From the IMG/VR virus record IMGVR_UViG_2690316028_000012: a stretch of DNA of 11,390 bases, one strand, 5' to 3'. Shown here in pieces: positions 1 to 11,390 of this stretch; within the stretch, counting starts at the first letter, position 1, and each line of letters opens with the position of its first letter. The notes below the pieces were generated by a model, which was given only the letters and a program-made list of their open reading frames with translations, was not told the origin of the DNA and ran no database searches. The DNA comes from a virus. Taxonomy: Duplodnaviria; Heunggongvirae; Uroviricota; Caudoviricetes. The position numbers and the translations under genes were made by a program.

Positions 1-1260
1 ATGCCAAAACTCACAGACATGCAGATCCGCGCATGGATAAAGGCCGGGGAGCGATTCGAGGGACGCTCTGACGGTAACGGGCTTTATCTTTCATACCGCG
101 AAAACTACCAGACCCCCGTCTGGCGATTCCGCTATAAATTCGCAGGGAAACCCCGCGCCATGCTGATTGGCTCATATGCCGAGCTATCACTATCAAAGGC
201 CAGAGAGACAGCCAAAGAGCTATCGGCGCGTGTTGCGCTGGGTTATGACGTCGCGGGAGAGAAGCAGGAACGGAAAGCCGAAGCACTGGCGAAGATGGAA
301 GCAGAGAAGAACGCCATGCGCGTTTCAGAGCTTGCCGCTGAATACTTTGAGCGTCAGATCCTCCCGCGCTGGAAGCACCCCGATATACTCCGCCGCCGTA
401 TCGACAAAGATATAAACCCCTGCATTGGCAGCATGAAGGTAGAGGACGTGAAACCGCGCCATATCGATGACATGCTGAAAGGTATTGTTGACCGTGGAGC
501 GCCGACCATAGCAACGGACGTGCTGAGATGGACGCGCCGCATATTCGACTACGGAATCAAACGGCACGCGCTGGAGATTAACCCATGTTCAGCCTTTGAG
601 GTGGCAGACGCCGGAGGGAAAGAAGTTGCCCGTGACCGCTGGTTAACCCGCGATGAGTTAATCCAGCTATTCAAAGCCATGCGCACGGCTAAGGGATTCA
701 GTCGCCAGAACGAAATCACGTTCAAATTACTGTTAGCGTTATGCGTCCGCAAAATGGAGTTATGCGCCGCCCGCTGGGAGGAGTTCGATTTTGATAAAGC
801 TGTATGGCGCTTGCCAGAGGAACGCAGCAAAAACGGCGACGCTATAGACATCCCATTAGCACCGCCAGCCGTCGAATGGCTGAGAGAGCTTAAAACGTTC
901 TCATGCAACAGCGCATGGGTACTGCCAGCCAGAAAGATGCAAAACCGCATGATCCCACATATTCAGGAAAGCACTTTACCCGTAGCACTGGCTAAGGTTC
1001 GCGCCGAAATGCCGGATGTGCCTAATTTCACGATTCACGACTTCCGACGCACCGCACGTACTCATTTAGCAGCGTTGGGTGTTGATCCTGTCGTGGCGGA
1101 ACGATGCCTCAATCATCGCATTAAGGGCGTAGAGGGGATTTATAACCGCCATAAGTATTTTGATGAGCGTAAAGCAGCACTGGCACAGTGGGCTGATCTG
1201 CTGGTGGCACTGGAAAGCGGAAAAGACTACAACGTAACGCCTCTCAGAAGGGCGAACTAA
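1..1260 (+). CDS. int: Tyrosine-type site-specific integrase, P4/CP4-57 family
   Basis: 419-aa ORF. N-terminal region is typical of P4-like integrases (GLYLSY..WRFRYKF). C-terminal catalytic signature is present: R in LALCVRKMELCAARWEEFDF, H-x-x-R in HDFRRTART, and LNHR...GIYNRHKY carrying the catalytic Tyr. Confidence 0.9.
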   Translation: MPKLTDMQIRAWIKAGERFEGRSDGNGLYLSYRENYQTPVWRFRYKFAGKPRAMLIGSYAELSLSKARETAKELSARVALGYDVAGEKQERKAEALAKMEAEKNAMRVSELAAEYFERQILPRWKHPDILRRRIDKDINPCIGSMKVEDVKPRHIDDMLKGIVDRGAPTIATDVLRWTRRIFDYGIKRHALEINPCSAFEVADAGGKEVARDRWLTRDELIQLFKAMRTAKGFSRQNEITFKLLLALCVRKMELCAARWEEFDFDKAVWRLPEERSKNGDAIDIPLAPPAVEWLRELKTFSCNSAWVLPARKMQNRMIPHIQESTLPVALAKVRAEMPDVPNFTIHDFRRTARTHLAALGVDPVVAERCLNHRIKGVEGIYNRHKYFDERKAALAQWADLLVALESGKDYNVTPLRRAN

Positions 1261-1267
1261 CTGAATA

Positions 1268-1323
1268 GATTGAGCCTAGCTCGACGGGGCGAAAAGCGGG
1301 AAGCCTTACCGCCTGGCTCAATC
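1268..1323. repeat. Perfect 9-bp inverted repeat GATTGAGCC / GGCTCAATC separated by 38 bp, in the int-cargo intergenic region
   Basis: 1268-1276 gattgagcc and 1315-1323 ggctcaatc are exact reverse complements. No T-run follows, so it is not a canonical terminator. Confidence 0.35.
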
Positions 1324-1355
1324 ACAAAATAAGGCGCAGCGTAAAAGGTGACGCA

Positions 1356-2321
1356 ATGAACGACTCTCATGAAACAACTGTGGTGCATAGAAATTTATGG
1401 CAGGAATCAGGTATTCCACCTTTGGACTACTGCACGATAGAGCGAGCATCAAAATTATTAAATTGTGAAATTGATGATATATGGCATTGGAAAGATAGAC
1501 TACATATAGACTTTTATGTCTATGCTGACTTTCTTGATTTCATTGAATCTGATGCCACCATCCACTTCAAAAAAGATGCTAATTTTATAACTGATTTATT
1601 ACTTATGTACCCAGAAGAAGTAAGGTTTACATTTCCTTTTCTTATTACCAGCGCAAGCAACGAAGTTTATATCCCAGCATCTGAAAGCGGTGCTTATGAG
1701 CTATTTTATGCACATAAACCACTGACAGTTGAAGACAGCGACAATAAAAATGTTTTTGAACAAATTGGCAAAAACTCTTTTATTGTAAGAAAATCAATTG
1801 CATGTGGATTGTTGCGTGTACGCGGTAGAACAACACGACATTATCATTCACAAGAATGTGGAGAACCATATGTGCGACTTGAAGCAACATTTGATTGTGA
1901 TCTATATAAGTTCAAAATGCAAAGTTCCCAAATTCACCTGAGTAGCCTGTCAGATAAAAACATTTATATAACAAAGGCTGATTTAGAATACCTTCATGAC
2001 GCAAAGGTTAATGGAAGTTTTGACGCAGCTAAGAGCAAAAAACGATACGAAATGGCGGTAGAACAGGAACTAATACCTGAAATAAAAAATAGCAACCATA
2101 ATGCCGAGAGACATGCTGAAAACAGGGAAAAACTTTTCAAATCTGCAATATATCTTTTGTCAAAGTATCCTGATGAATGCCGTGGCAAAAAGAAAGAAAT
2201 AAGCCCTGAGAAGTGGCGGGATTGCATAGTGGCTCATAAAGACGAAATTCCACCGTTAGCAATCACAAATGAAGATGTGATTTTGAGACACTTACGTGCT
2301 GCCGCCAACGGTAAGGGGTAG
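1356..2321 (+). CDS. Hypothetical protein, low-GC cargo gene of unknown function
   Basis: 321-aa ORF with RBS aaaaggtga 7 nt upstream of the ATG. Visibly AT-rich and rich in AAA/AAT/ATT/TTT codons compared with flanking genes. Followed by a strong intrinsic terminator. No catalytic or nucleotide-binding motif recognised by eye. Confidence 0.7.
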   Translation: MNDSHETTVVHRNLWQESGIPPLDYCTIERASKLLNCEIDDIWHWKDRLHIDFYVYADFLDFIESDATIHFKKDANFITDLLLMYPEEVRFTFPFLITSASNEVYIPASESGAYELFYAHKPLTVEDSDNKNVFEQIGKNSFIVRKSIACGLLRVRGRTTRHYHSQECGEPYVRLEATFDCDLYKFKMQSSQIHLSSLSDKNIYITKADLEYLHDAKVNGSFDAAKSKKRYEMAVEQELIPEIKNSNHNAERHAENREKLFKSAIYLLSKYPDECRGKKKEISPEKWRDCIVAHKDEIPPLAITNEDVILRHLRAAANGKG

Positions 2322-2337
2322 AGTAGCTAACTATTCA

Positions 2338-2367
2338 GGCACAGTATCATTACTGTGCCTTTTTATT
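2338..2367 (+). terminator. Rho-independent terminator downstream of the cargo gene
   Basis: 9-bp perfect stem GGCACAGTA / TACTGTGCC with 4-nt loop tcat, immediately followed by TTTTTATT. Confidence 0.75.
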
Positions 2368-2389
2368 GTTCATATATGTACAGATACTT

Positions 2390-2434
2390 CCTCCCGTAAC
2401 GAAGCAACAACTATCGCTAAGAGGTTACGGGAAG
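2390..2434. promoter_or_regulatory. Inverted repeat (cCtCCCGTAAC ... GTTACGGGAAg) spanning the alpA ribosome-binding site; candidate operator or translational-control hairpin
   Basis: 8-bp perfect core CCCGTAAC (2393-2400) / GTTACGGG (2424-2431), 10 of 11 over the extended arms, 23-bp spacer. The 3' arm contains the GGGAAG Shine-Dalgarno of alpA (ATG at 2436). Confidence 0.35.
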
Positions 2435-2435
2435 C

Positions 2436-2639
2436 ATGAACACCGACACTATTCCTACAAAAGGCTATATCAGACGCTTCCGCCTGGCTGAATTGCTGGG
2501 CGTTAGTGTATCCACCATTGATCGCAAAGTTCGCAGCGGCTCGCTACCGCGCCCGGTAAAGCTGGGGGAGAAGATTACCGCCTTTGATGCGGTAGAGATT
2601 AATAACTGGCTGGCGGAGCGCCGGGGAAAGGTGGCGTAA
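2436..2639 (+). CDS. alpA: AlpA-family phage transcriptional regulator (excisionase-like HTH)
   Basis: 67-aa protein with the characteristic AlpA HTH core RLAELLGVSVSTIDRKVRSGSLPRPVKLGEKITAFDAVEINNWL. Confidence 0.85.
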   Translation: MNTDTIPTKGYIRRFRLAELLGVSVSTIDRKVRSGSLPRPVKLGEKITAFDAVEINNWLAERRGKVA

Positions 2640-3919: not shown

Positions 3920-4094
3920 CCACAATCCGATGCCGGGAAGCCGTTACAAGGACAGTCACGGGGCTGTAGTGACCGTACAGCGCGTCGAGCATAACCGTGT
4001 GACCTTTTACCGCGAGGGCTATCAGTCGCCATGTGTTCAGCCTTTGGAGAGATTCGTTAATGAGTTCGTGGAGGTGCGCCGTGATACTGAATGA
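3912..4094 (+). CDS. Small hypothetical protein (possibly the DUF4222-like small prophage protein family)
   Basis: 60-aa ORF. Start overlaps the upstream stop in ATGCGTAA, with GGAGGT 5 nt upstream. The family assignment is from memory only. Confidence 0.5.
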   Translation: MRNHNPMPGSRYKDSHGAVVTVQRVEHNRVTFYREGYQSPCVQPLERFVNEFVEVRRDTE

Positions 4095-4381
4095 ACCTGC
4101 CGCCCAGAAAGAAGCCTTTAATCTGGCTGGCATGTTGTCAAAAGTTGACATCTGCAACCTTACAAAACCTGATATTGATACCGCAGCGCCCGGAGTTCCG
4201 TTACCAGTACGCGAGGCGCTTACCCTCAACAAAAAGATGGTGAGCCGTGCACAGGAAAAACTCTTAAAGGGTTACGGTTTTATCTGGTATGACCACCTAG
4301 CAGAGAAAAGCTGTTATAGTCCAAGCGTTGCTGCAAAATCAGCAACCGGGATTGGAACCCCGAACACACTAAGGGCGACAC

Positions 4382-4404
4382 AGACGCCGAAAGCGTCTTT
4401 TTTT
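4382..4404 (+). terminator. Candidate intrinsic terminator inside the operon
   Basis: Stem AGACGC (4382-4387) / GCGTCT (4393-4398), loop cgaaa, followed by a run of seven T to 4404. Confidence 0.5.
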
Positions 4405-4593
4405 GTGTCCGATCACCACGCACATCAAATCAGCGGCCTTGCCCGTACTGTATCTATGGTGGCGTTAGTGGGGCTACGTTCGCGTAGGCCGGTTTCCTTT
4501 GTGTCCGGTAGTTCCAACCCTGCTAACGTCACCGCCACTATTAAGATTGGAACCTTATGCGGTGACTCCTTAAACACAAAGGAGGCTGCCATA

Positions 4594-4785
4594 ATGGCTA
4601 CTACCCCAACCCAAAAACCATCATTTATCTGGTTAATCGCAGCAGTTCGCCGCGATATGCCGACAATTACCGCCAAAATTCACCATATCGCCGCAGAGAC
4701 TGAGCAGGAAGCCCGCCGCATTCTGGCGCGGGATCACGTTTGCTTTTTTGCCGGACGTATTCGCACAGGGGGCGCACATGCTTAA
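4594..4785 (+). CDS. Host cell division inhibitor Icd-like protein (63 aa)
   Basis: Strong RBS aaaggagg 8 nt upstream of ATG 4594. Product MATTPTQKPSFIWLIAAVRRD...EQEARRILARDHVCFFAGRI resembles Icd-like proteins as recalled. The tracker's 250-aa ORF 4033..4785 is the same frame running on upstream with no credible start. Confidence 0.6.
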   Translation: MATTPTQKPSFIWLIAAVRRDMPTITAKIHHIAAETEQEARRILARDHVCFFAGRIRTGGAHA

Positions 4786-5849: not shown

Positions 5850-6191
5850 ATGATTACTAAAAATTTCCGACTGAATGCGCTGGCGAATAAGTATGCGTCG
5901 GCACTGTATAACCACATTACCTCCACCAGCGGCGGGGACTATTTCATGGTTGATGCGGACGGCCTCGCCGTCCGTGTGGAAATCGTCAATGGAGTAAAAG
6001 GCGTTCGCAGCCTGATCGATAGCTACACACTGGCAGCCATGAAAGTGTTCTACCCGCAGTGGGAAACCGTGGGGATCGAGCTTCTTGATCGTTGCGTCAC
6101 TAAGGACGGATTGACTGACGTCGGGCGCGAGATATGGCAAAGCATGATTAATGATATGGGCGCGACCGTGGCAGGAGGCAACCATGCGTAA
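5850..6191 (+). CDS. Hypothetical protein (113 aa)
   Basis: RBS gaggga upstream of ATG 5850. Stop overlaps the primase start in ATGCGTAA. Confidence 0.55.
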   Translation: MITKNFRLNALANKYASALYNHITSTSGGDYFMVDADGLAVRVEIVNGVKGVRSLIDSYTLAAMKVFYPQWETVGIELLDRCVTKDGLTDVGREIWQSMINDMGATVAGGNHA

Positions 6192-8949
6192 TATCGACCT
6201 TATCCGCGAAGTGACCAGCGCCGCAGCAGGGCGCTGGCCTTATGTGCTGGCTGGATTGTCTATCGACGTGCCTGATTCATCGCGCCGCCATTCTCCATGC
6301 CCTGCATGTGGTGGAAAAGACCGTTTCAGATTCGACGACAACGGGCGCGGTAGCTTTATCTGCAACCAGTGTGGCGCTGGTGACGGGCTGGATTTAATCA
6401 AGCGGGTTAACAACTGCGACACTACGGAGGCGGCACAGCTTGCCGCTGACGTGCTGGGTATTGATTACCAGGCAGCGCAAACCGACCCGGTGGCAGCGAG
6501 CCATAGAAGAGAGCAACTGGAAGCTGACCGCCAGCAGCGTGAGCAGGAGCGCCAGAAACAGGCAGCAGAGGACGCAGAGCAGCGAAGGGCTACGTTTGCC
6601 CATCTGTATGCCGGAATGCGCCAGAGTGCCACACAGGGCGAATCTGATTACCTGCAATCAAAAGGGCTGACCGGGTTTAACTATCCGGTTATGCCGGATG
6701 GTTCGTTATTGCTGGAGCTGGTGGACGAATCCGGCGCAGTGGCAGCAGCGCAAACCATTACACCGCAGGGAGAGAAGCGACTCCTGACAGGTTCAGCAAA
6801 GCGCGGGGCATATCACGCCGTAAACGCGCCAGAATCGCCGCAGAGCGTTTTAATTGCCGAGGGGCTGGCAACCGCTTTATCAGTCCACCTGATGCGCCCT
6901 GACGCGCTGACAGTGTGCGCCATTGATGCGGGCAACCTGCTACCCGTTGCCGAAGTGATGCGCCGGATATATCCAGCCACGCAGATTATCATTGCCGCAG
7001 ATAACGACCACCAGCAGGACGAACAGGCGAACACGGGCAAAGATGCCGCAGAGAAAGCCGCCTTATCCGTGGCTGGCTGGGTGGCACTGCCGCCGACAGA
7101 CTACAAAGCCGACTGGGACGACTACCGCCAGCAAAACGGGCTGGAAGTCGCTACGGCTGCGTTTAACGATTCGATGTACCAGATTCAAGGGGAAGCCGTG
7201 AAACCGCGATTGCAAGCCATTGAGGGCGGTAAAACTGACCATCCAGAGAAAGATCCACTAAAACCCCACATTGAGAGCCGCAAAGATGGCGTTTTCTGGG
7301 TAACGCCGAAGGTGGACAAGGAAAGCGGGGAGATCGTCAACGCTGAAAGCTGGTTATGTTCCCCGTTGGAGGTTATCGGCACGGGACGCGACGACAAAGA
7401 TCAGTATCTTATTATCTCATGGCTGGCATTCGGTGCAGGCATACCGACAACAGCGGCTATCCCGCTGGCTGATATTGGCGAGCGTGAAGGCTGGCGCACC
7501 CTGAAAGCTGGTGGCGTCAACGTCACAACGAAAAACAGCCTACGGGCGATTCTTGCCGACTGGTTACAGCGAAGCGGCTCGCGTGAATTGTGGCGCGTTG
7601 CTCATGCTACAGGCTGGCAGTGCGGGGCATACATCATGCCGGACGGGGAAATCATCGGCACACCTGAGCGGCCTGTTTTGTTCAGCGGGCGCAGTTCAGC
7701 CGCTGCCGGGTATACCGTAGCAGGAACGTCGGAAAGCTGGCGTAACAGTGTTGCGCGGCTGGCATACGGTAATTACGCGATGATGACAGGCATCGCCGCA
7801 GCACTGGCAGCGCCATTAATCGGGGTGGCAGATCGTGACGGATTCGGGATTCATTTTTATGAGCAATCGAGCGCCGGGAAAACAACCACGCAGAACGTGG
7901 CGAGCAGTCTATACGGCAACCCTGATGCCTTGCGCCTGACGTGGTACGGGACGGCGCTGGGGCTGATAAACGAGGCCGCCGCCCACAATGACGGGCTGAT
8001 GCCACTGGATGAAGTCGGACAGGGCGCTGACCCGATAAGCGTTTCTCAGTCTGCCTATGCCCTGTTTAACGGCGTGGGGAAATTGCAGGGAGCAAAGGAA
8101 GGAGGCAACCGGGATCTGAAACGCTGGCGCACCGTGGCAATCAGCACCGGGGAAGTGGACTTAGAAACCTTCATCGCCACCGCCGGACGCAAGACCAAAG
8201 CCGGGCAACTGGTGCGCTTGCTGAATATCCCGTTAAGTAAGGCGGTGCGCTTTCATGAACACCAGACAGGGAAAGAACACGCCGACGCGCTGAAAGATGC
8301 TTATCAGCACCATCATGGCGCTGCCGGGAGGGAGTGGATCAGATGGCTTTCAGACCACCAGCAACAGGCGATTGATGTCGTTCGTGAGTGTGAAGCCCGC
8401 TGGCGCAGTCTAATCCCTGCCGACTATGGGGAACAGGTTCACCGTGTAGGGGCAAGATTTGCCATTCTGGAGGCCGCTTTACTGATGGGTGGCGTGGTTA
8501 CTGGCTGGGATGCTCAAACGTGCCGGGATGCGATACAGCACGCCTATAACGCATGGCTAAAAGAGTTCGGCACGGGGAACAAAGAGCACCAGCAGATCAT
8601 CGAGCAGGCGGAGGCATTTTTAAATGCCTATGGCCTGAGTCGATTCGCGCCGCTGCCTTACGACCCCGCCAGCCTGCCGATTCATAATCTGGCTGGATAC
8701 AGGCAGCGCGGAAATCATGACGATTCACCGATAACGTTTTACACGTTCCCCGACACTTTCGATAAGGATATTGCTAAGGGGTTTAACAGGCAGCAGGTGG
8801 CCCGCGTCCTGAAAGAATCGGGGATGCTTACCCCTTCGGCAGACGGAAAAAAATTTCAGAGGAAAAGCCCGCGCATTCAGGGGAGGCAGATTAACGTTTA
8901 CGTTTTGCAATTCCTGCCGGATGGGGAGGAAAGCCAGCCAGAGCAATAA
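6184..8949 (+). CDS. Replication primase-helicase (P4 alpha-like: zinc-ribbon + TOPRIM primase + DUF927/D5-type NTPase)
   Basis: Start placed at ATG 6184 (AGGAGG 5 nt upstream) rather than the tracker's 6151. C4 zinc ribbon CPACGGKDRFRF...FICNQCG. TOPRIM motifs LIAEGLATALS and IIIAADNDHQ. P-loop-like YEQSSAGKTT and Walker-B-like LMPLDEVG in the C-terminal half. Confidence 0.9.
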   Translation: MRNIDLIREVTSAAAGRWPYVLAGLSIDVPDSSRRHSPCPACGGKDRFRFDDNGRGSFICNQCGAGDGLDLIKRVNNCDTTEAAQLAADVLGIDYQAAQTDPVAASHRREQLEADRQQREQERQKQAAEDAEQRRATFAHLYAGMRQSATQGESDYLQSKGLTGFNYPVMPDGSLLLELVDESGAVAAAQTITPQGEKRLLTGSAKRGAYHAVNAPESPQSVLIAEGLATALSVHLMRPDALTVCAIDAGNLLPVAEVMRRIYPATQIIIAADNDHQQDEQANTGKDAAEKAALSVAGWVALPPTDYKADWDDYRQQNGLEVATAAFNDSMYQIQGEAVKPRLQAIEGGKTDHPEKDPLKPHIESRKDGVFWVTPKVDKESGEIVNAESWLCSPLEVIGTGRDDKDQYLIISWLAFGAGIPTTAAIPLADIGEREGWRTLKAGGVNVTTKNSLRAILADWLQRSGSRELWRVAHATGWQCGAYIMPDGEIIGTPERPVLFSGRSSAAAGYTVAGTSESWRNSVARLAYGNYAMMTGIAAALAAPLIGVADRDGFGIHFYEQSSAGKTTTQNVASSLYGNPDALRLTWYGTALGLINEAAAHNDGLMPLDEVGQGADPISVSQSAYALFNGVGKLQGAKEGGNRDLKRWRTVAISTGEVDLETFIATAGRKTKAGQLVRLLNIPLSKAVRFHEHQTGKEHADALKDAYQHHHGAAGREWIRWLSDHQQQAIDVVRECEARWRSLIPADYGEQVHRVGARFAILEAALLMGGVVTGWDAQTCRDAIQHAYNAWLKEFGTGNKEHQQIIEQAEAFLNAYGLSRFAPLPYDPASLPIHNLAGYRQRGNHDDSPITFYTFPDTFDKDIAKGFNRQQVARVLKESGMLTPSADGKKFQRKSPRIQGRQINVYVLQFLPDGEESQPEQ

Positions 8950-8975: not shown

Positions 8976-9233
8976 GGTGGTTCAGGTGGTTCAGGTGGTT
9001 CAGTAAGTAATTGTTATTGATTTATAATGTTTTTTTGTAAGAAATTGAACCACCACTGAACCACCAAACGGGTATTTTGAACCACCAGAGAGAAACGGAT
9101 TATTTTCACTGGCTGGCAGTGAACCACCAAGAAGGGCGACTGAACCACCAGATAAATTTAAAAGGTGGTTCAGCAAAACCCAGAGTTGGCGCGGCCTAGA
9201 GGGGTACTGAACCACTGAACCACCTGAACCACC
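8976..9233. repeat. Iteron cluster (GGTGGTTCAG / CTGAACCACC, ~12 copies in both orientations) flanking an AT-rich segment; probable replication origin
   Basis: Forward copies at 8976, 8985, 8994 (tandem, 9-bp period) and 9164. Reverse copies at 9046, 9056, 9078, 9120, 9140, 9207 (partial), 9216, 9225. AT-rich stretch at 9004-9046. Sits immediately 3' of the primase gene. Confidence 0.8.
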
Positions 9234-9337
9234 AACTTTTTTGTTTATATACCAATAAATCTGGCGAAGGTGTCCCACAATAAGACGGAGCCGGGTAATC
9301 TTCATTAGCAAAACTAATAATTCGAGGTATTCGCAAA

Positions 9338-9799
9338 ATGACAGCACAGATATCAGCCTACGGGCGGCTGGTGGCAGATCCCCAGACCAGAACGACAAAC
9401 AGCGGCGGCAGCATGGCAATGGGACGGTTAGCGGTGGCACTGCCCTGCCATGCAGCAGAGGGCGGAGAGGTTACTTTCTGGCTGGGCGTGGTGGCATTCG
9501 GCAAACAGGCCGACGCACTGGCAGGGCACGTTAAAGGCGATTTAGTCAGTGTTGCCGGAGCGATGCAGATCAATCAGTGGACGGGCAAGGATGGCGGTAC
9601 ACAGCAAGGTTATCAGGTAGTAGCCGACAGTGTGATCAGCGCCAGAACGGTACGCCCCGGCGGGAAGCGGGCCGAATCAGTCAAAGCAAGCGGAGCCAGC
9701 AGAGGCCACGCAACACAATCCGCGCCGGGATGGGAGTTATATAACACCCCTGATGATTTTGACCAGCGCCCGCCGTTTGATGATGAAGATCCATTCTGA
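9338..9799 (+). CDS. ssb: Single-stranded DNA-binding protein (SSB)
   Basis: 153-aa ORF. OB-fold region aligns by eye with E. coli SSB (GRLVADPQTRTTNSGG; VVAFGKQADALAGHVKGDLVSVAGAMQINQWTGKDGG). Acidic C-terminal tail ends DDEDPF (canonical SSB tail is DDDIPF). Confidence 0.8.
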   Translation: MTAQISAYGRLVADPQTRTTNSGGSMAMGRLAVALPCHAAEGGEVTFWLGVVAFGKQADALAGHVKGDLVSVAGAMQINQWTGKDGGTQQGYQVVADSVISARTVRPGGKRAESVKASGASRGHATQSAPGWELYNTPDDFDQRPPFDDEDPF

Positions 9800-9810
9800 G
9801 GGGGATACAC

Positions 9811-10122
9811 ATGGTAAACGACAGGAAAGCCGAGGAACTGGAAGCAAAGGGGCTGTATCGCAGGGCAGCTACACGCTGGCAGGAAGTCATGATGATTTGT
9901 GCTGAGGACGATGATCGGGAATGGGTAAAGCAGCGACGTGATACGTGTCTGACGAACGTGAAGCGCCCGCCAGTGAAAACCGATGATTACGGCGATCTGC
10001 ATAAAGCAGTCACTGAGACACAACACCGCATGGGGATAGCGCAACCAAACGGCAACGCCTTCCGATTAAACGGTGGTAAGAAGCAACGACAGGCCACCAG
10101 CGGGGGCGACAGTTCGCAGTAA
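9811..10122 (+). CDS. PerC-family transcriptional regulator-like protein
   Basis: 103-aa ORF. N-terminus KAEELEAKGLYRRAATRWQEVMM matches the PerC/Pch family signature as recalled. RBS gaggggga upstream. Confidence 0.7.
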   Translation: MVNDRKAEELEAKGLYRRAATRWQEVMMICAEDDDREWVKQRRDTCLTNVKRPPVKTDDYGDLHKAVTETQHRMGIAQPNGNAFRLNGGKKQRQATSGGDSSQ

Positions 10123-11030: not shown

Positions 11031-11390
11031 TTAACCAACCCGCTCGCATTCTCCATCAATCGCGTTATCAGCGCCGCCAGTATCGCGCATAACAGCACAT
11101 TGACCGGGTAAACCATAGCGCACGACCGTTGCGTTAGTTTCACCGCCACGCTTTACCTGACGAGATTCATACACTGTCACACGCCCCAGTAGCCCACCGG
11201 CAACCATGCTTTCGAGCGTGCGCCGTGTAGATTCGAGCTGGTGGCGCTTATCGAACGACACCATGCCATGAAGCAGGTAGGCCACACCCGACACATCGAA
11301 CGGCGGCGCACCAATCTCACCCGTCACCAATTCGAGGTTATCCGGCTCAAAGTAGCTGAGTATCATCTTTTTACGGCTGGTCATTCTCAT
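11031..11390 (-). CDS. Hypothetical protein (119 aa), convergent with the island genes; start coincides with the window edge, so the N-terminus may be cut
   Basis: Intact 360-nt minus-strand ORF with ordinary GC content. Not recognised by eye. Confidence 0.5.
   Translation of the reverse strand: MRMTSRKKMILSYFEPDNLELVTGEIGAPPFDVSGVAYLLHGMVSFDKRHQLESTRRTLESMVAGGLLGRVTVYESRQVKRGGETNATVVRYGLPGQCAVMRDTGGADNAIDGECERVG

Follow-up and report, generated by a model that had tools for sequence, protein, structure and literature searches.

A three-part protein family resides between int and alpA in AlpA-type phage satellites, with its alleles swapped between near-identical backbones

In the Vibrio PICMI satellites, the gene next to the integrase gene is described as either overlapping it (iolg, integrase-overlapping gene) or contiguous with it (icg, integrase-contiguous gene) (Barcia-Cruz et al. 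2024, PMC10803314). Across 35 PICMI subfamilies, these genes form 13 families without relationship to one another, all of unknown function, and they are rarely absent. In PICMI115, excision requires the gene lying between int and alpA, a gene constitutively expressed together with int; the role of this diverse gene is a question explicitly posed by the PICMI authors (PMC10803314). In E. coli MP1, helper induction and packaging of the PICI EcCIMP1 have been shown with phage Kapi1, EcCIMP1 contributes to superinfection immunity, and in published models Gram-negative PICIs are induced by activating alpA rather than by derepression (Pick et al. 2025, PMC11773190). Defense loci of satellites offer another comparison. 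Immune systems have been reported at the 5' (int-proximal) or 3' end of PICIs (PMC11364771, section 6), and one satellite defense, Tai, is a non-enzymatic, binder-type system (PMC11364771). The defense hotspots of P4/P2 are swapped between identical cores and almost never empty, eight of 11 putative systems from them were antiviral when tested, and known defense genes make up 34% of the P4 pangenome (PMC13586616).

Here, we analyze 11,390 nucleotides of viral DNA (IMG/VR record IMGVR_UViG_2690316028_000012), hereafter the window, and in particular the gene between its int and alpA, hereafter X. By its layout, a terminal int followed by a co-oriented alpA as in all related loci, the element is an AlpA-type PICI, or EcCIMP1-like satellite. 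The ORFs scanned include a replication module of its own and no virion structural families or lysis genes, the combination that marks a satellite. The integrase matches Arm-DNA-bind_3 (2e-18), Phage_int_M (1e-16), and Phage_integrase (1e-17) in Pfam, and the integrases of yicC-site elements are 88-98% identical to it. The product of alpA is the master regulator, or excisionase-type winged helix-turn-helix (wHTH) protein, of AlpA-type satellites. The window further encodes a 144-aa protein whose homologs carry the RefSeq name ‘PM1773 family’, an AntA antirepressor, an SSB, and a PerC-like regulator, and it contains a C4-type antisense RNA with a1/b1 targets and an isrK match (4314-4539). The features are as follows.

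1..1260, + strand: int, P4-type tyrosine integrase of 419 aa (Pfam), the left conserved flank of the slot
1269..1335, + strand: int-alpA RNA motif (Rfam RF02996), a structured RNA between int and X, part of the conserved backbone (cmscan)
1344..1350, + strand: Shine-Dalgarno sequence AAAGGTG, 5 nt 5' of the ATG of X, part of the conserved backbone (sequence)
1356..2321, + strand: X, ORF of 321 aa with an ATG start (ORF call)
1413..1580, + strand: N-terminal wHTH of X with a MerR/Xis/AlpA-like fold, ~aa 20-75
1581..1943, + strand: hypervariable beta-rich middle of X, ~aa 76-196 (alignments, model secondary structure, GC3)
1944..2093, + strand: ‘DLWIT’ strand-helix motif of X plus two helices, ~aa 197-246, family-wide (alignment, model)
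2094..2318, + strand: C-terminal helical module of X, aa 247-321, near-invariant in the window's subfamily
2337..2370, + strand: intrinsic terminator with a 10-bp stem, a 4-nt loop (2337-2360), and a T-tract (scan)
2393..2431, + strand: inverted repeat CCCGTAAC-N23-GTTACGGG bracketing the alpA Shine-Dalgarno sequence, start of the right conserved flank (sequence)
2436..2639, + strand: alpA, 67 aa, the right conserved flank of the slot (Pfam Phage_AlpA 3e-8, HTH_17 3e-6)
6151-8949: Zn-ribbon/Toprim/DUF927 primase (Pfam)
8976-9233: iterons

A first-pass annotation of this DNA, made from the letters alone, had drawn attention to a 321-aa ORF between int and alpA, and the ORF is indeed present at 1356-2321. 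It is also far more AT-rich than its neighbors, as had been judged by eye, with a G+C content of 0.370 compared with 0.535 in int, 0.544 in alpA, and 0.513 in the next gene; GC3 is 0.295, compared with 0.583 in int, and is lowest (0.215) in the middle region of X. The start codon lies 95 nt downstream of int, and the gap holds the structured RNA, which matches the full length of the RF02996 model in cmscan (60.6 bits against a gathering score of 35.8, E 7.5e-11). The same motif lies 3' of int in seven of 14 other loci, including the E. coli element L011, in which a DUF6387 protein occupies the slot, and loci whose slot gene abuts or overlaps int lack it; we found no literature on the function of the int-alpA RNA. 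A search of the stretch from int to the X ORF turned up no sigma-70-like promoter. A ribosome-binding site had been described as the gene's own. The site exists, but it is not X's own, because the int-X block is common to an element with the unrelated DUF6387 gene in its slot, and the alignment shows AAAGGTG kept 5' of X-family and DUF6387 genes alike. The terminator that had been reported downstream is likewise real, with a stem of 10 bp where 9 bp had been counted. Its hairpin (stem 2337-2360) is followed by TTTTTATTGTT, and its pairing is held by compensatory changes in other alleles (L004, L002, and L007), but by strict criteria the locus survey places it only in the window's allele subfamily; on these grounds, the view of the terminator as a general insulator of the slot cassette was dropped. 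Several related elements have no more than 19-28 nt between the end of the slot gene and alpA.

To limit bias, the slot was sampled by fetching loci with the integrase as the query and then classifying what lies between int and alpA. alpA starts 830-1,233 bp after int in 46 of 50 integrase-seeded loci, and in every one of the 46 the slot contains exactly one co-oriented gene, of 216-368 aa, in an interval that is AT-rich throughout the sample (G+C 0.31-0.45, compared with 0.45-0.55 in int). X-family genes are the occupants in 32 of them, a single family of 216-235 aa in seven, and three or four further families in the other seven. DUF6387 also adjoins AlpA in the island ICEKp258.2. HHalign revealed no significant kinship to X for the DUF6387, 216-aa, 233-aa, or 284-aa occupants, and a relaxed hmmsearch, extended to the 218-aa and 293-aa occupants, likewise gave no significant relation to X. 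Across ~22 slot variants from six or more families, there was no PADLOC match, and no Pfam match except DUF6387. About 30% of related elements are without the X family in the slot.

The swapped segment has sharp boundaries. To its left, the int-X intergenic block and ribosome-binding site stay conserved up to the start codon, even before DUF6387. The X-family gene of L032 and all o216-like and 233-aa occupants overlap the int stop codon by 4 nt. On the right, the CCCGTAAC-N23-GTTACGGG repeat is kept with alpA in the alignment whatever the slot gene, alpA-only matches in E. coli genomes begin at this repeat, and a regular expression finds it in 16 of 42 distinct sampled loci. Between these boundaries, divergent alleles (20-35% identical), and sometimes unrelated genes, lie in backbones whose int is 94-99% and alpA 89-100% identical. 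At the amino acid level, the window and L004 are 98% identical in int, 98% in alpA, and 33% in X; the corresponding values are 99%, 100%, and 20% for L001 and L010, and 94%, 89%, and 35% for L016 and L018. The window and L009, whose att site differs from that of the window, are 63% identical in int and 100% in both alpA and X. These pairs show that X moves between satellites as one unit and independently of its neighbors int and alpA, and the expectation of a variable slot near int is borne out in the form of a swap site.

The alleles are much older than the backbones that carry them. Between the window and L004, the C-terminal module of X is 79% identical in amino acids, with a proportion of synonymous differences of 0.74 compared with 0.12 in int and 0.08 in alpA; the shared module does not stem from recent conversion. 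Across pairs, its pN/pS is 0.09-0.26 and synonymous sites are saturated, and X alleles are therefore old lineages under purifying selection that enter young satellite backbones and are shuffled between them by recombination. The X ORF is intact in all loci. In short, the allele is swapped and the family is resident.

Residence extends well beyond the close relatives of the window. The order int-X-alpA is found in all ~35 clear contexts, from Escherichia, Salmonella, Klebsiella, Pantoea, Morganella, and Pectobacterium, and it holds with distantly related integrases (tblastn identity down to 26%, phmmer E 1e-24 to 1e-39); downstream there usually follow a 142-144-aa protein, an AntA or Bro-N antirepressor, Ash, and a primase. 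Among these contexts are elements at yicC (in E. coli, Salmonella, Pantoea, and Morganella) and at der/yfgJ (in E. coli and Klebsiella), as well as 12 IMG/VR contigs, of which several carry highly different integrases, a Pectobacterium element whose primase is of the D5 type, and a 22-kb Klebsiella record deposited as a plasmid. A scan of genome contigs for distant subfamilies yielded two loci, no relatives were found among 50,697 phage records, and the plasmid matches proved to be mis-assigned chromosomes or the same satellite. There are two exceptions: an X-family orphan in K. pneumoniae with a different C-terminus, located 1.1 kb from tRNA-Arg(CCT) and probably an island remnant, and a betaproteobacterial MAG with a weak match to the C-terminal module alone. 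The X family is tied to a single position, between int and alpA, and the allele of the window occurs in ~76-77 of 5,426 complete E. coli genomes at a nucleotide identity of at least 95%. The picture of an insulated, recently acquired cassette does not survive these results, given that the family is usual in the slot, both in the integrase-seeded sample and in all ~35 contexts, and its alleles are ancient. Conservation of the same gene at this position in all related elements had been named in advance as a finding that would speak against that picture; at the level of the family the gene is conserved, because the X family is the usual resident, although individual alleles and some occupants vary.

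That X is undescribed, as first supposed, is supported by searches in which it had no credible family match in the Pfam, NCBIfam, PHROG, or PADLOC HMM libraries and zero matches in a profile search of PDB sequences; nothing in BFVD matched either. The profile check that had been proposed, against Pfam and defense models, matched no housekeeping, structural, or defense family. A word-indexed search returned 48 close homolog clusters, every one ‘hypothetical’, and a full profile search of 1.84 billion representatives (E<=0.001) returned 600 clusters, counted at 50% identity, all unnamed and nearly all of 270-350 aa. Named members come from Escherichia, Salmonella, Enterobacter, Klebsiella, Pantoea, Pectobacterium, Serratia, Morganella, Xenorhabdus, Brenneria, Leclercia, and Chromobacterium, a range of Enterobacterales plus one betaproteobacterium (Chromobacterium), and no mention of X-family protein accessions was found in the literature. 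Among 40 diverse members there was no credible Pfam family match, and PADLOC-DB 2.0 gave no family-level match for the 48 close plus 40 diverse members. Two candidate identities were rejected: DUF6137, whose match is weak (E 0.04), and PDC-S31 of PADLOC (15.6 bits, E 0.002), because only two of the 48 close members match it though all share the C-terminal module; among the diverse and distant members, the figure is one of 40.

X is a three-part protein, with a conserved N-terminal wHTH, a hypervariable beta-rich center, and a C-terminal helical module (AlphaFold model, pLDDT 73). In fold comparisons, the N-terminal ~60 residues superpose on TipAN, GlnR, Xis, and an AlpA-family excisionase, and the match covers both the helix-turn-helix and the wing of the MerR/Xis/AlpA type, although proteins of that type have no counterpart to the further ~250 residues of X. 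The family motif of this part is LPPLEYCxxxRAAxLLxCxxxDLLHWAxxGxI. At the level of sequence profiles, X does not match Pfam HTH_17, Phage_AlpA, or MerR, one of 40 diverse family members matches HTH_17 (E 0.005), and the pattern shared with AlpA is co-linear and in the correct register at an HHalign probability of 1.6%, which is not significant. The middle region cannot be aligned across allele groups, except for a ‘GLW’ motif. It is followed by the ‘DLWIT’ region, with the consensus DLxIT...L....G..LP in the diverse-family alignment and, in the model, a strand at 203-206 and helices at 207-219 and 224-239. The C-terminal module has the consensus AERHAxNREKLFKSAIYLLSKYPDECRGxxKEISPEKWRDCIxxHKDEIPPLxITNEDVILKHLRSAxNGKG and 22 invariant columns in 48 sequences of the window's subfamily, and at the family level the pattern H.NAERHAxNRE...YPxxC...W...PPL. 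Modeled separately, the C-terminal half reaches low confidence and generic helical-bundle matches only. There is no sign in X of enzymatic, effector, transmembrane or membrane, or nucleotide-binding domains, and no recognizable nuclease, TIR, SIR2, protease, or membrane effector.

Our best explanation, offered tentatively, is that X is a DNA-binding accessory of the int-alpA module and that its variable center serves as a specificity surface, the most plausible target being a phage-derived partner. X would be the resident int-contiguous gene of this module in an EcCIMP1-like, AlpA-type satellite (PICI), and it is probably transcribed with int in the integrated state, since it is co-oriented with int and lacks a promoter of its own, and since some of its relatives overlap the int stop codon by 4 nt. 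The wHTH may bind DNA, and together with Int and AlpA the protein could act in the decision or the mechanics of excision and induction, while its center would meet a phage-derived cue or partner. A specificity surface at this place would account for an arms-race-like diversity in a gene that the satellite never gives up. The int-alpA RNA upstream and the terminator downstream might set the level of X expression and hold alpA silent until a helper phage acts. Overall, X looks more like part of the satellite's own machinery for excision or induction than like a known defense gene.

The main rival is that X is a single-protein anti-phage or helper-interference factor in a PICI 5' accessory hotspot, its alleles swapped under phage pressure, which is possible. 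Its center would then sense or bind a phage component, and the wHTH and C-terminal module would block the phage non-enzymatically, by binding its DNA or protein, a mode for which Tai is a precedent (PMC11364771). Several observations agree with this: the int-proximal immune systems reported for PICIs (PMC11364771), the placing of divergent alleles or unrelated genes in near-identical backbones as in the P4/P2 hotspots, with their antiviral record and near-constant occupancy (PMC13586616), and the contribution of the related EcCIMP1 to superinfection immunity (PMC11773190). The AT-richness of every slot occupant points the same way. An argument against defense from the slot never being empty was dropped, since P4 hotspots are almost never empty as well (PMC13586616). 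As for X itself, the suggestion of a defense candidate has found no positive signal: there is no family-level PADLOC match (the PDC-S31 matches being those described above), no effector, transmembrane, or nucleotide-binding domain, and none of the ~22 slot variants is recognizable as defense, compared with 34% of the P4 pangenome. For this last reason, and because the slot is confined throughout to a single gene in a narrow size range, one family dominates it (70%) and is kept across very divergent integrases, that family is found outside the slot position only as one remnant-like orphan and one weak match, several occupants overlap int in an ATGA arrangement, and the N-terminus of X has an Xis/AlpA-type DNA-binding fold, the data fit the iolg/icg framework somewhat better than the defense-hotspot framework. 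Against the iolg/icg reading, X does not co-vary with int or alpA.

It is improbable that X is a master repressor like Stl, whose wHTH would silence the satellite from an operator near alpA or int until a helper protein on the variable domain releases it. In SaPIs, Stl is int-adjacent, has an N-terminal HTH, and is highly divergent between otherwise related satellites; its transcription diverges from that of its target genes, which it represses, and immunity depends on Stl alone. X shares with Stl the combination of a conserved DNA-binding part, here an N-terminal fold, and a hypervariable, putatively sensing part, it adjoins int immediately upstream of the master activator alpA, and the conserved inverted repeat at the alpA ribosome-binding site might be taken for an operator. 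This reading is weakened, however, because X is co-oriented with alpA, not divergent from it, and because the element already has an RNA immunity module in its C4 antisense RNA, a1/b1 targets, and isrK. Moreover, the inverted repeat is retained with unrelated slot genes, ~30% of related elements do without the X family, and the published models of Gram-negative PICIs rest on alpA activation (PMC11773190). Finally, a decaying or functionless hitch-hiker ORF in a recombination-prone spacer, which the lack of a recognizable domain in X and an AT-rich composition typical of foreign DNA might bring to mind, can in practice be excluded because the selection analysis contradicts it (pN/pS 0.09-0.26 in the C-terminal module over saturated synonymous divergence), in addition to the ORFs intact in all loci, the 600 homolog clusters of conserved architecture, and the spread of the window allele among complete E. 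coli genomes.

For the DNA-binding accessory of the int-alpA module, a bolder and unlikely extension can be formulated, in which the X family is the helper-sensing component of Gram-negative AlpA-type satellites: a wHTH protein made constitutively with Int, whose center would recognize a specific helper protein and whose C-terminal module would license excision by Int and AlpA. If so, allele swaps would re-program which phages a satellite can exploit, and X would be a functional analog of SaPI Stl built on a different logic. Irrespective of this, X bears on two open questions, namely how helper phages trigger Gram-negative PICIs and what the diverse int-alpA gene does. The family is now defined by its ~600 clusters, three-part architecture, DNA-binding-type N-terminus, and strict int-X-alpA position, and the presence of the window allele in so many E. 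coli genomes makes it a model tractable in E. coli. The natural allele-swap pairs in near-identical backbones can separate a recombination or induction factor from a helper-specificity determinant and from a defense protein. The case of X also carries a caution, that a low-GC gene beside an integrase gene is not automatically defense cargo.

Among known systems, the P4/P2 hotspots and the PICI 5' region resemble the slot in being variable, AT-rich, int-adjacent, swapped between near-identical cores, and never empty. However, the systems in P4/P2 hotspots are many, unrelated, and widely different in size, and a large share of them can be recognized, whereas the X slot holds one gene of 216-368 aa, 70% from one family, with none recognizable. 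EcCIMP1 shares with the window int, a slot gene, alpA, an AntA antirepressor, Ash/Icd, a P4-type primase, and a PerC-like regulator, but its integration site is elsewhere, between the flanking genes proA and yagU, and its slot gene (_002), misannotated as UvrB, is small, about one-tenth the size of UvrB, and falls outside the X family. With the PICMI iolg/icg genes, the likeness is that of a lone co-oriented gene between int and alpA, contiguous with int or overlapping it by ATGA, and extremely diverse. X, at 95 nt after int, is icg-like in this respect, and the L032, o216-like, and 233-aa occupants, which overlap int by 4 nt, are laid out like iolg. This likeness is one of position and behavior, the need for excision having been shown for PICMI115 only, and the satellites themselves differ in host clade, helper type, and size (6 kb for PICMI compared with ~11 kb or more). 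The type of locus is already known, as the PICI 5' region and the PICMI iolg/icg class, and the protein family and its architecture are undescribed in the sources searched. In position and behavior, X can be viewed as the enterobacterial counterpart of the Vibrio PICMI iolg/icg genes, its closest precedent.

L009, a related satellite locus in E. coli 873.10, is arranged as der / int ... yfgJ and occupies a chromosomal site different from that of the window, and its X (the gene filling the int-alpA slot), alpA and downstream genes are 98-100% identical to those of the window, but its integrase is only 63% identical. The near-identity of X, alpA and the downstream genes, together with a divergent integrase and another insertion site, shows that the integrase module and the remaining satellite recombine separately, each as a unit of its own. 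Features in and around the slot and alpA are as follows.

1269-1335, plus strand: Rfam int-alpA RNA motif (RF02996), right behind the int stop and 20 nt ahead of the X start
2393-2400 and 2424-2431: 8-bp inverted repeat CCCGTAAC-N23-GTTACGGG, in the alpA upstream region
2546-2562 and 2934-2950: perfect 17-nt inverted repeat (ACCGCGCCCGGTAAAGC), arms 371 nt apart

The RNA motif is found ahead of X-family and DUF6387 slot genes alike and is absent where the slot gene abuts int; no functional account of this RNA was found in the literature. On the other side of the slot, the 8-bp repeat is kept together with alpA whatever slot gene is present, and its 3' arm begins on the final base of the alpA Shine-Dalgarno sequence. 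It may serve to control this master regulator, whether as an operator or as a hairpin that blocks translation. The 17-nt repeat has one arm within alpA and the other within the following gene; a rough estimate puts the chance expectation at about 0.004 such pairs in 11 kb. L009 and two further comparison loci (L004 and L011) keep the repeat, and three others (L001, L010 and L012) lack it.

The AT-rich middle of X itself contains two promoter-like hexamer pairs (1722-1751 and 1765-1794) and an imperfect 18-nt inverted repeat (89%) at 1741-1786. Since promoter-like sites are fewer than shuffled sequence would lead one to expect, this is probably an effect of composition.

An orphan X-family gene lies in K. 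pneumoniae (L035:4995-5816), on a record deposited as a plasmid that yet bears chromosomal genes. It shares the N-terminus and middle of the family, has a different C-terminus, and is located 1.1 kb from tRNA-Arg(CCT), with no annotated integrase or alpA nearby. A decayed island may have left it behind.

The rest of the window holds the following features.

4314-4539, plus strand: C4 antisense RNA (82 bits) with its a1/b1 targets, plus an isrK-like RNA
8976-9233: 11 occurrences of the 9-mer GGTGGTTCA/TGAACCACC, some in each orientation, within the primase-SSB gap
9000-9440, minus strand: ORF encoding a GGS-repeat-rich product
9811-10122, plus strand: PerC-family regulator (Pfam, 4e-31)
11031-11390, minus strand: 119-aa ORF ending at the right window edge

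The primase-SSB gap is AT-richer, and its 9-mers are probably iterons of a replication origin; the minus-strand ORF is likely artefactual, a product of this repetition. The PerC homologue of EcCIMP1, a related E. coli PICI, reportedly silenced rather than activated LEE expression (PMC11773190). The C4/isrK-like region falls within a 250-aa ORF (4033-4785), which may be partly spurious, and the same RNA pair is carried by 11 related loci. The C4 RNA with its a1/b1 targets and the isrK-like RNA point to control of the downstream Icd/Ash region by RNA immunity in the style of P1, P7 and P4.
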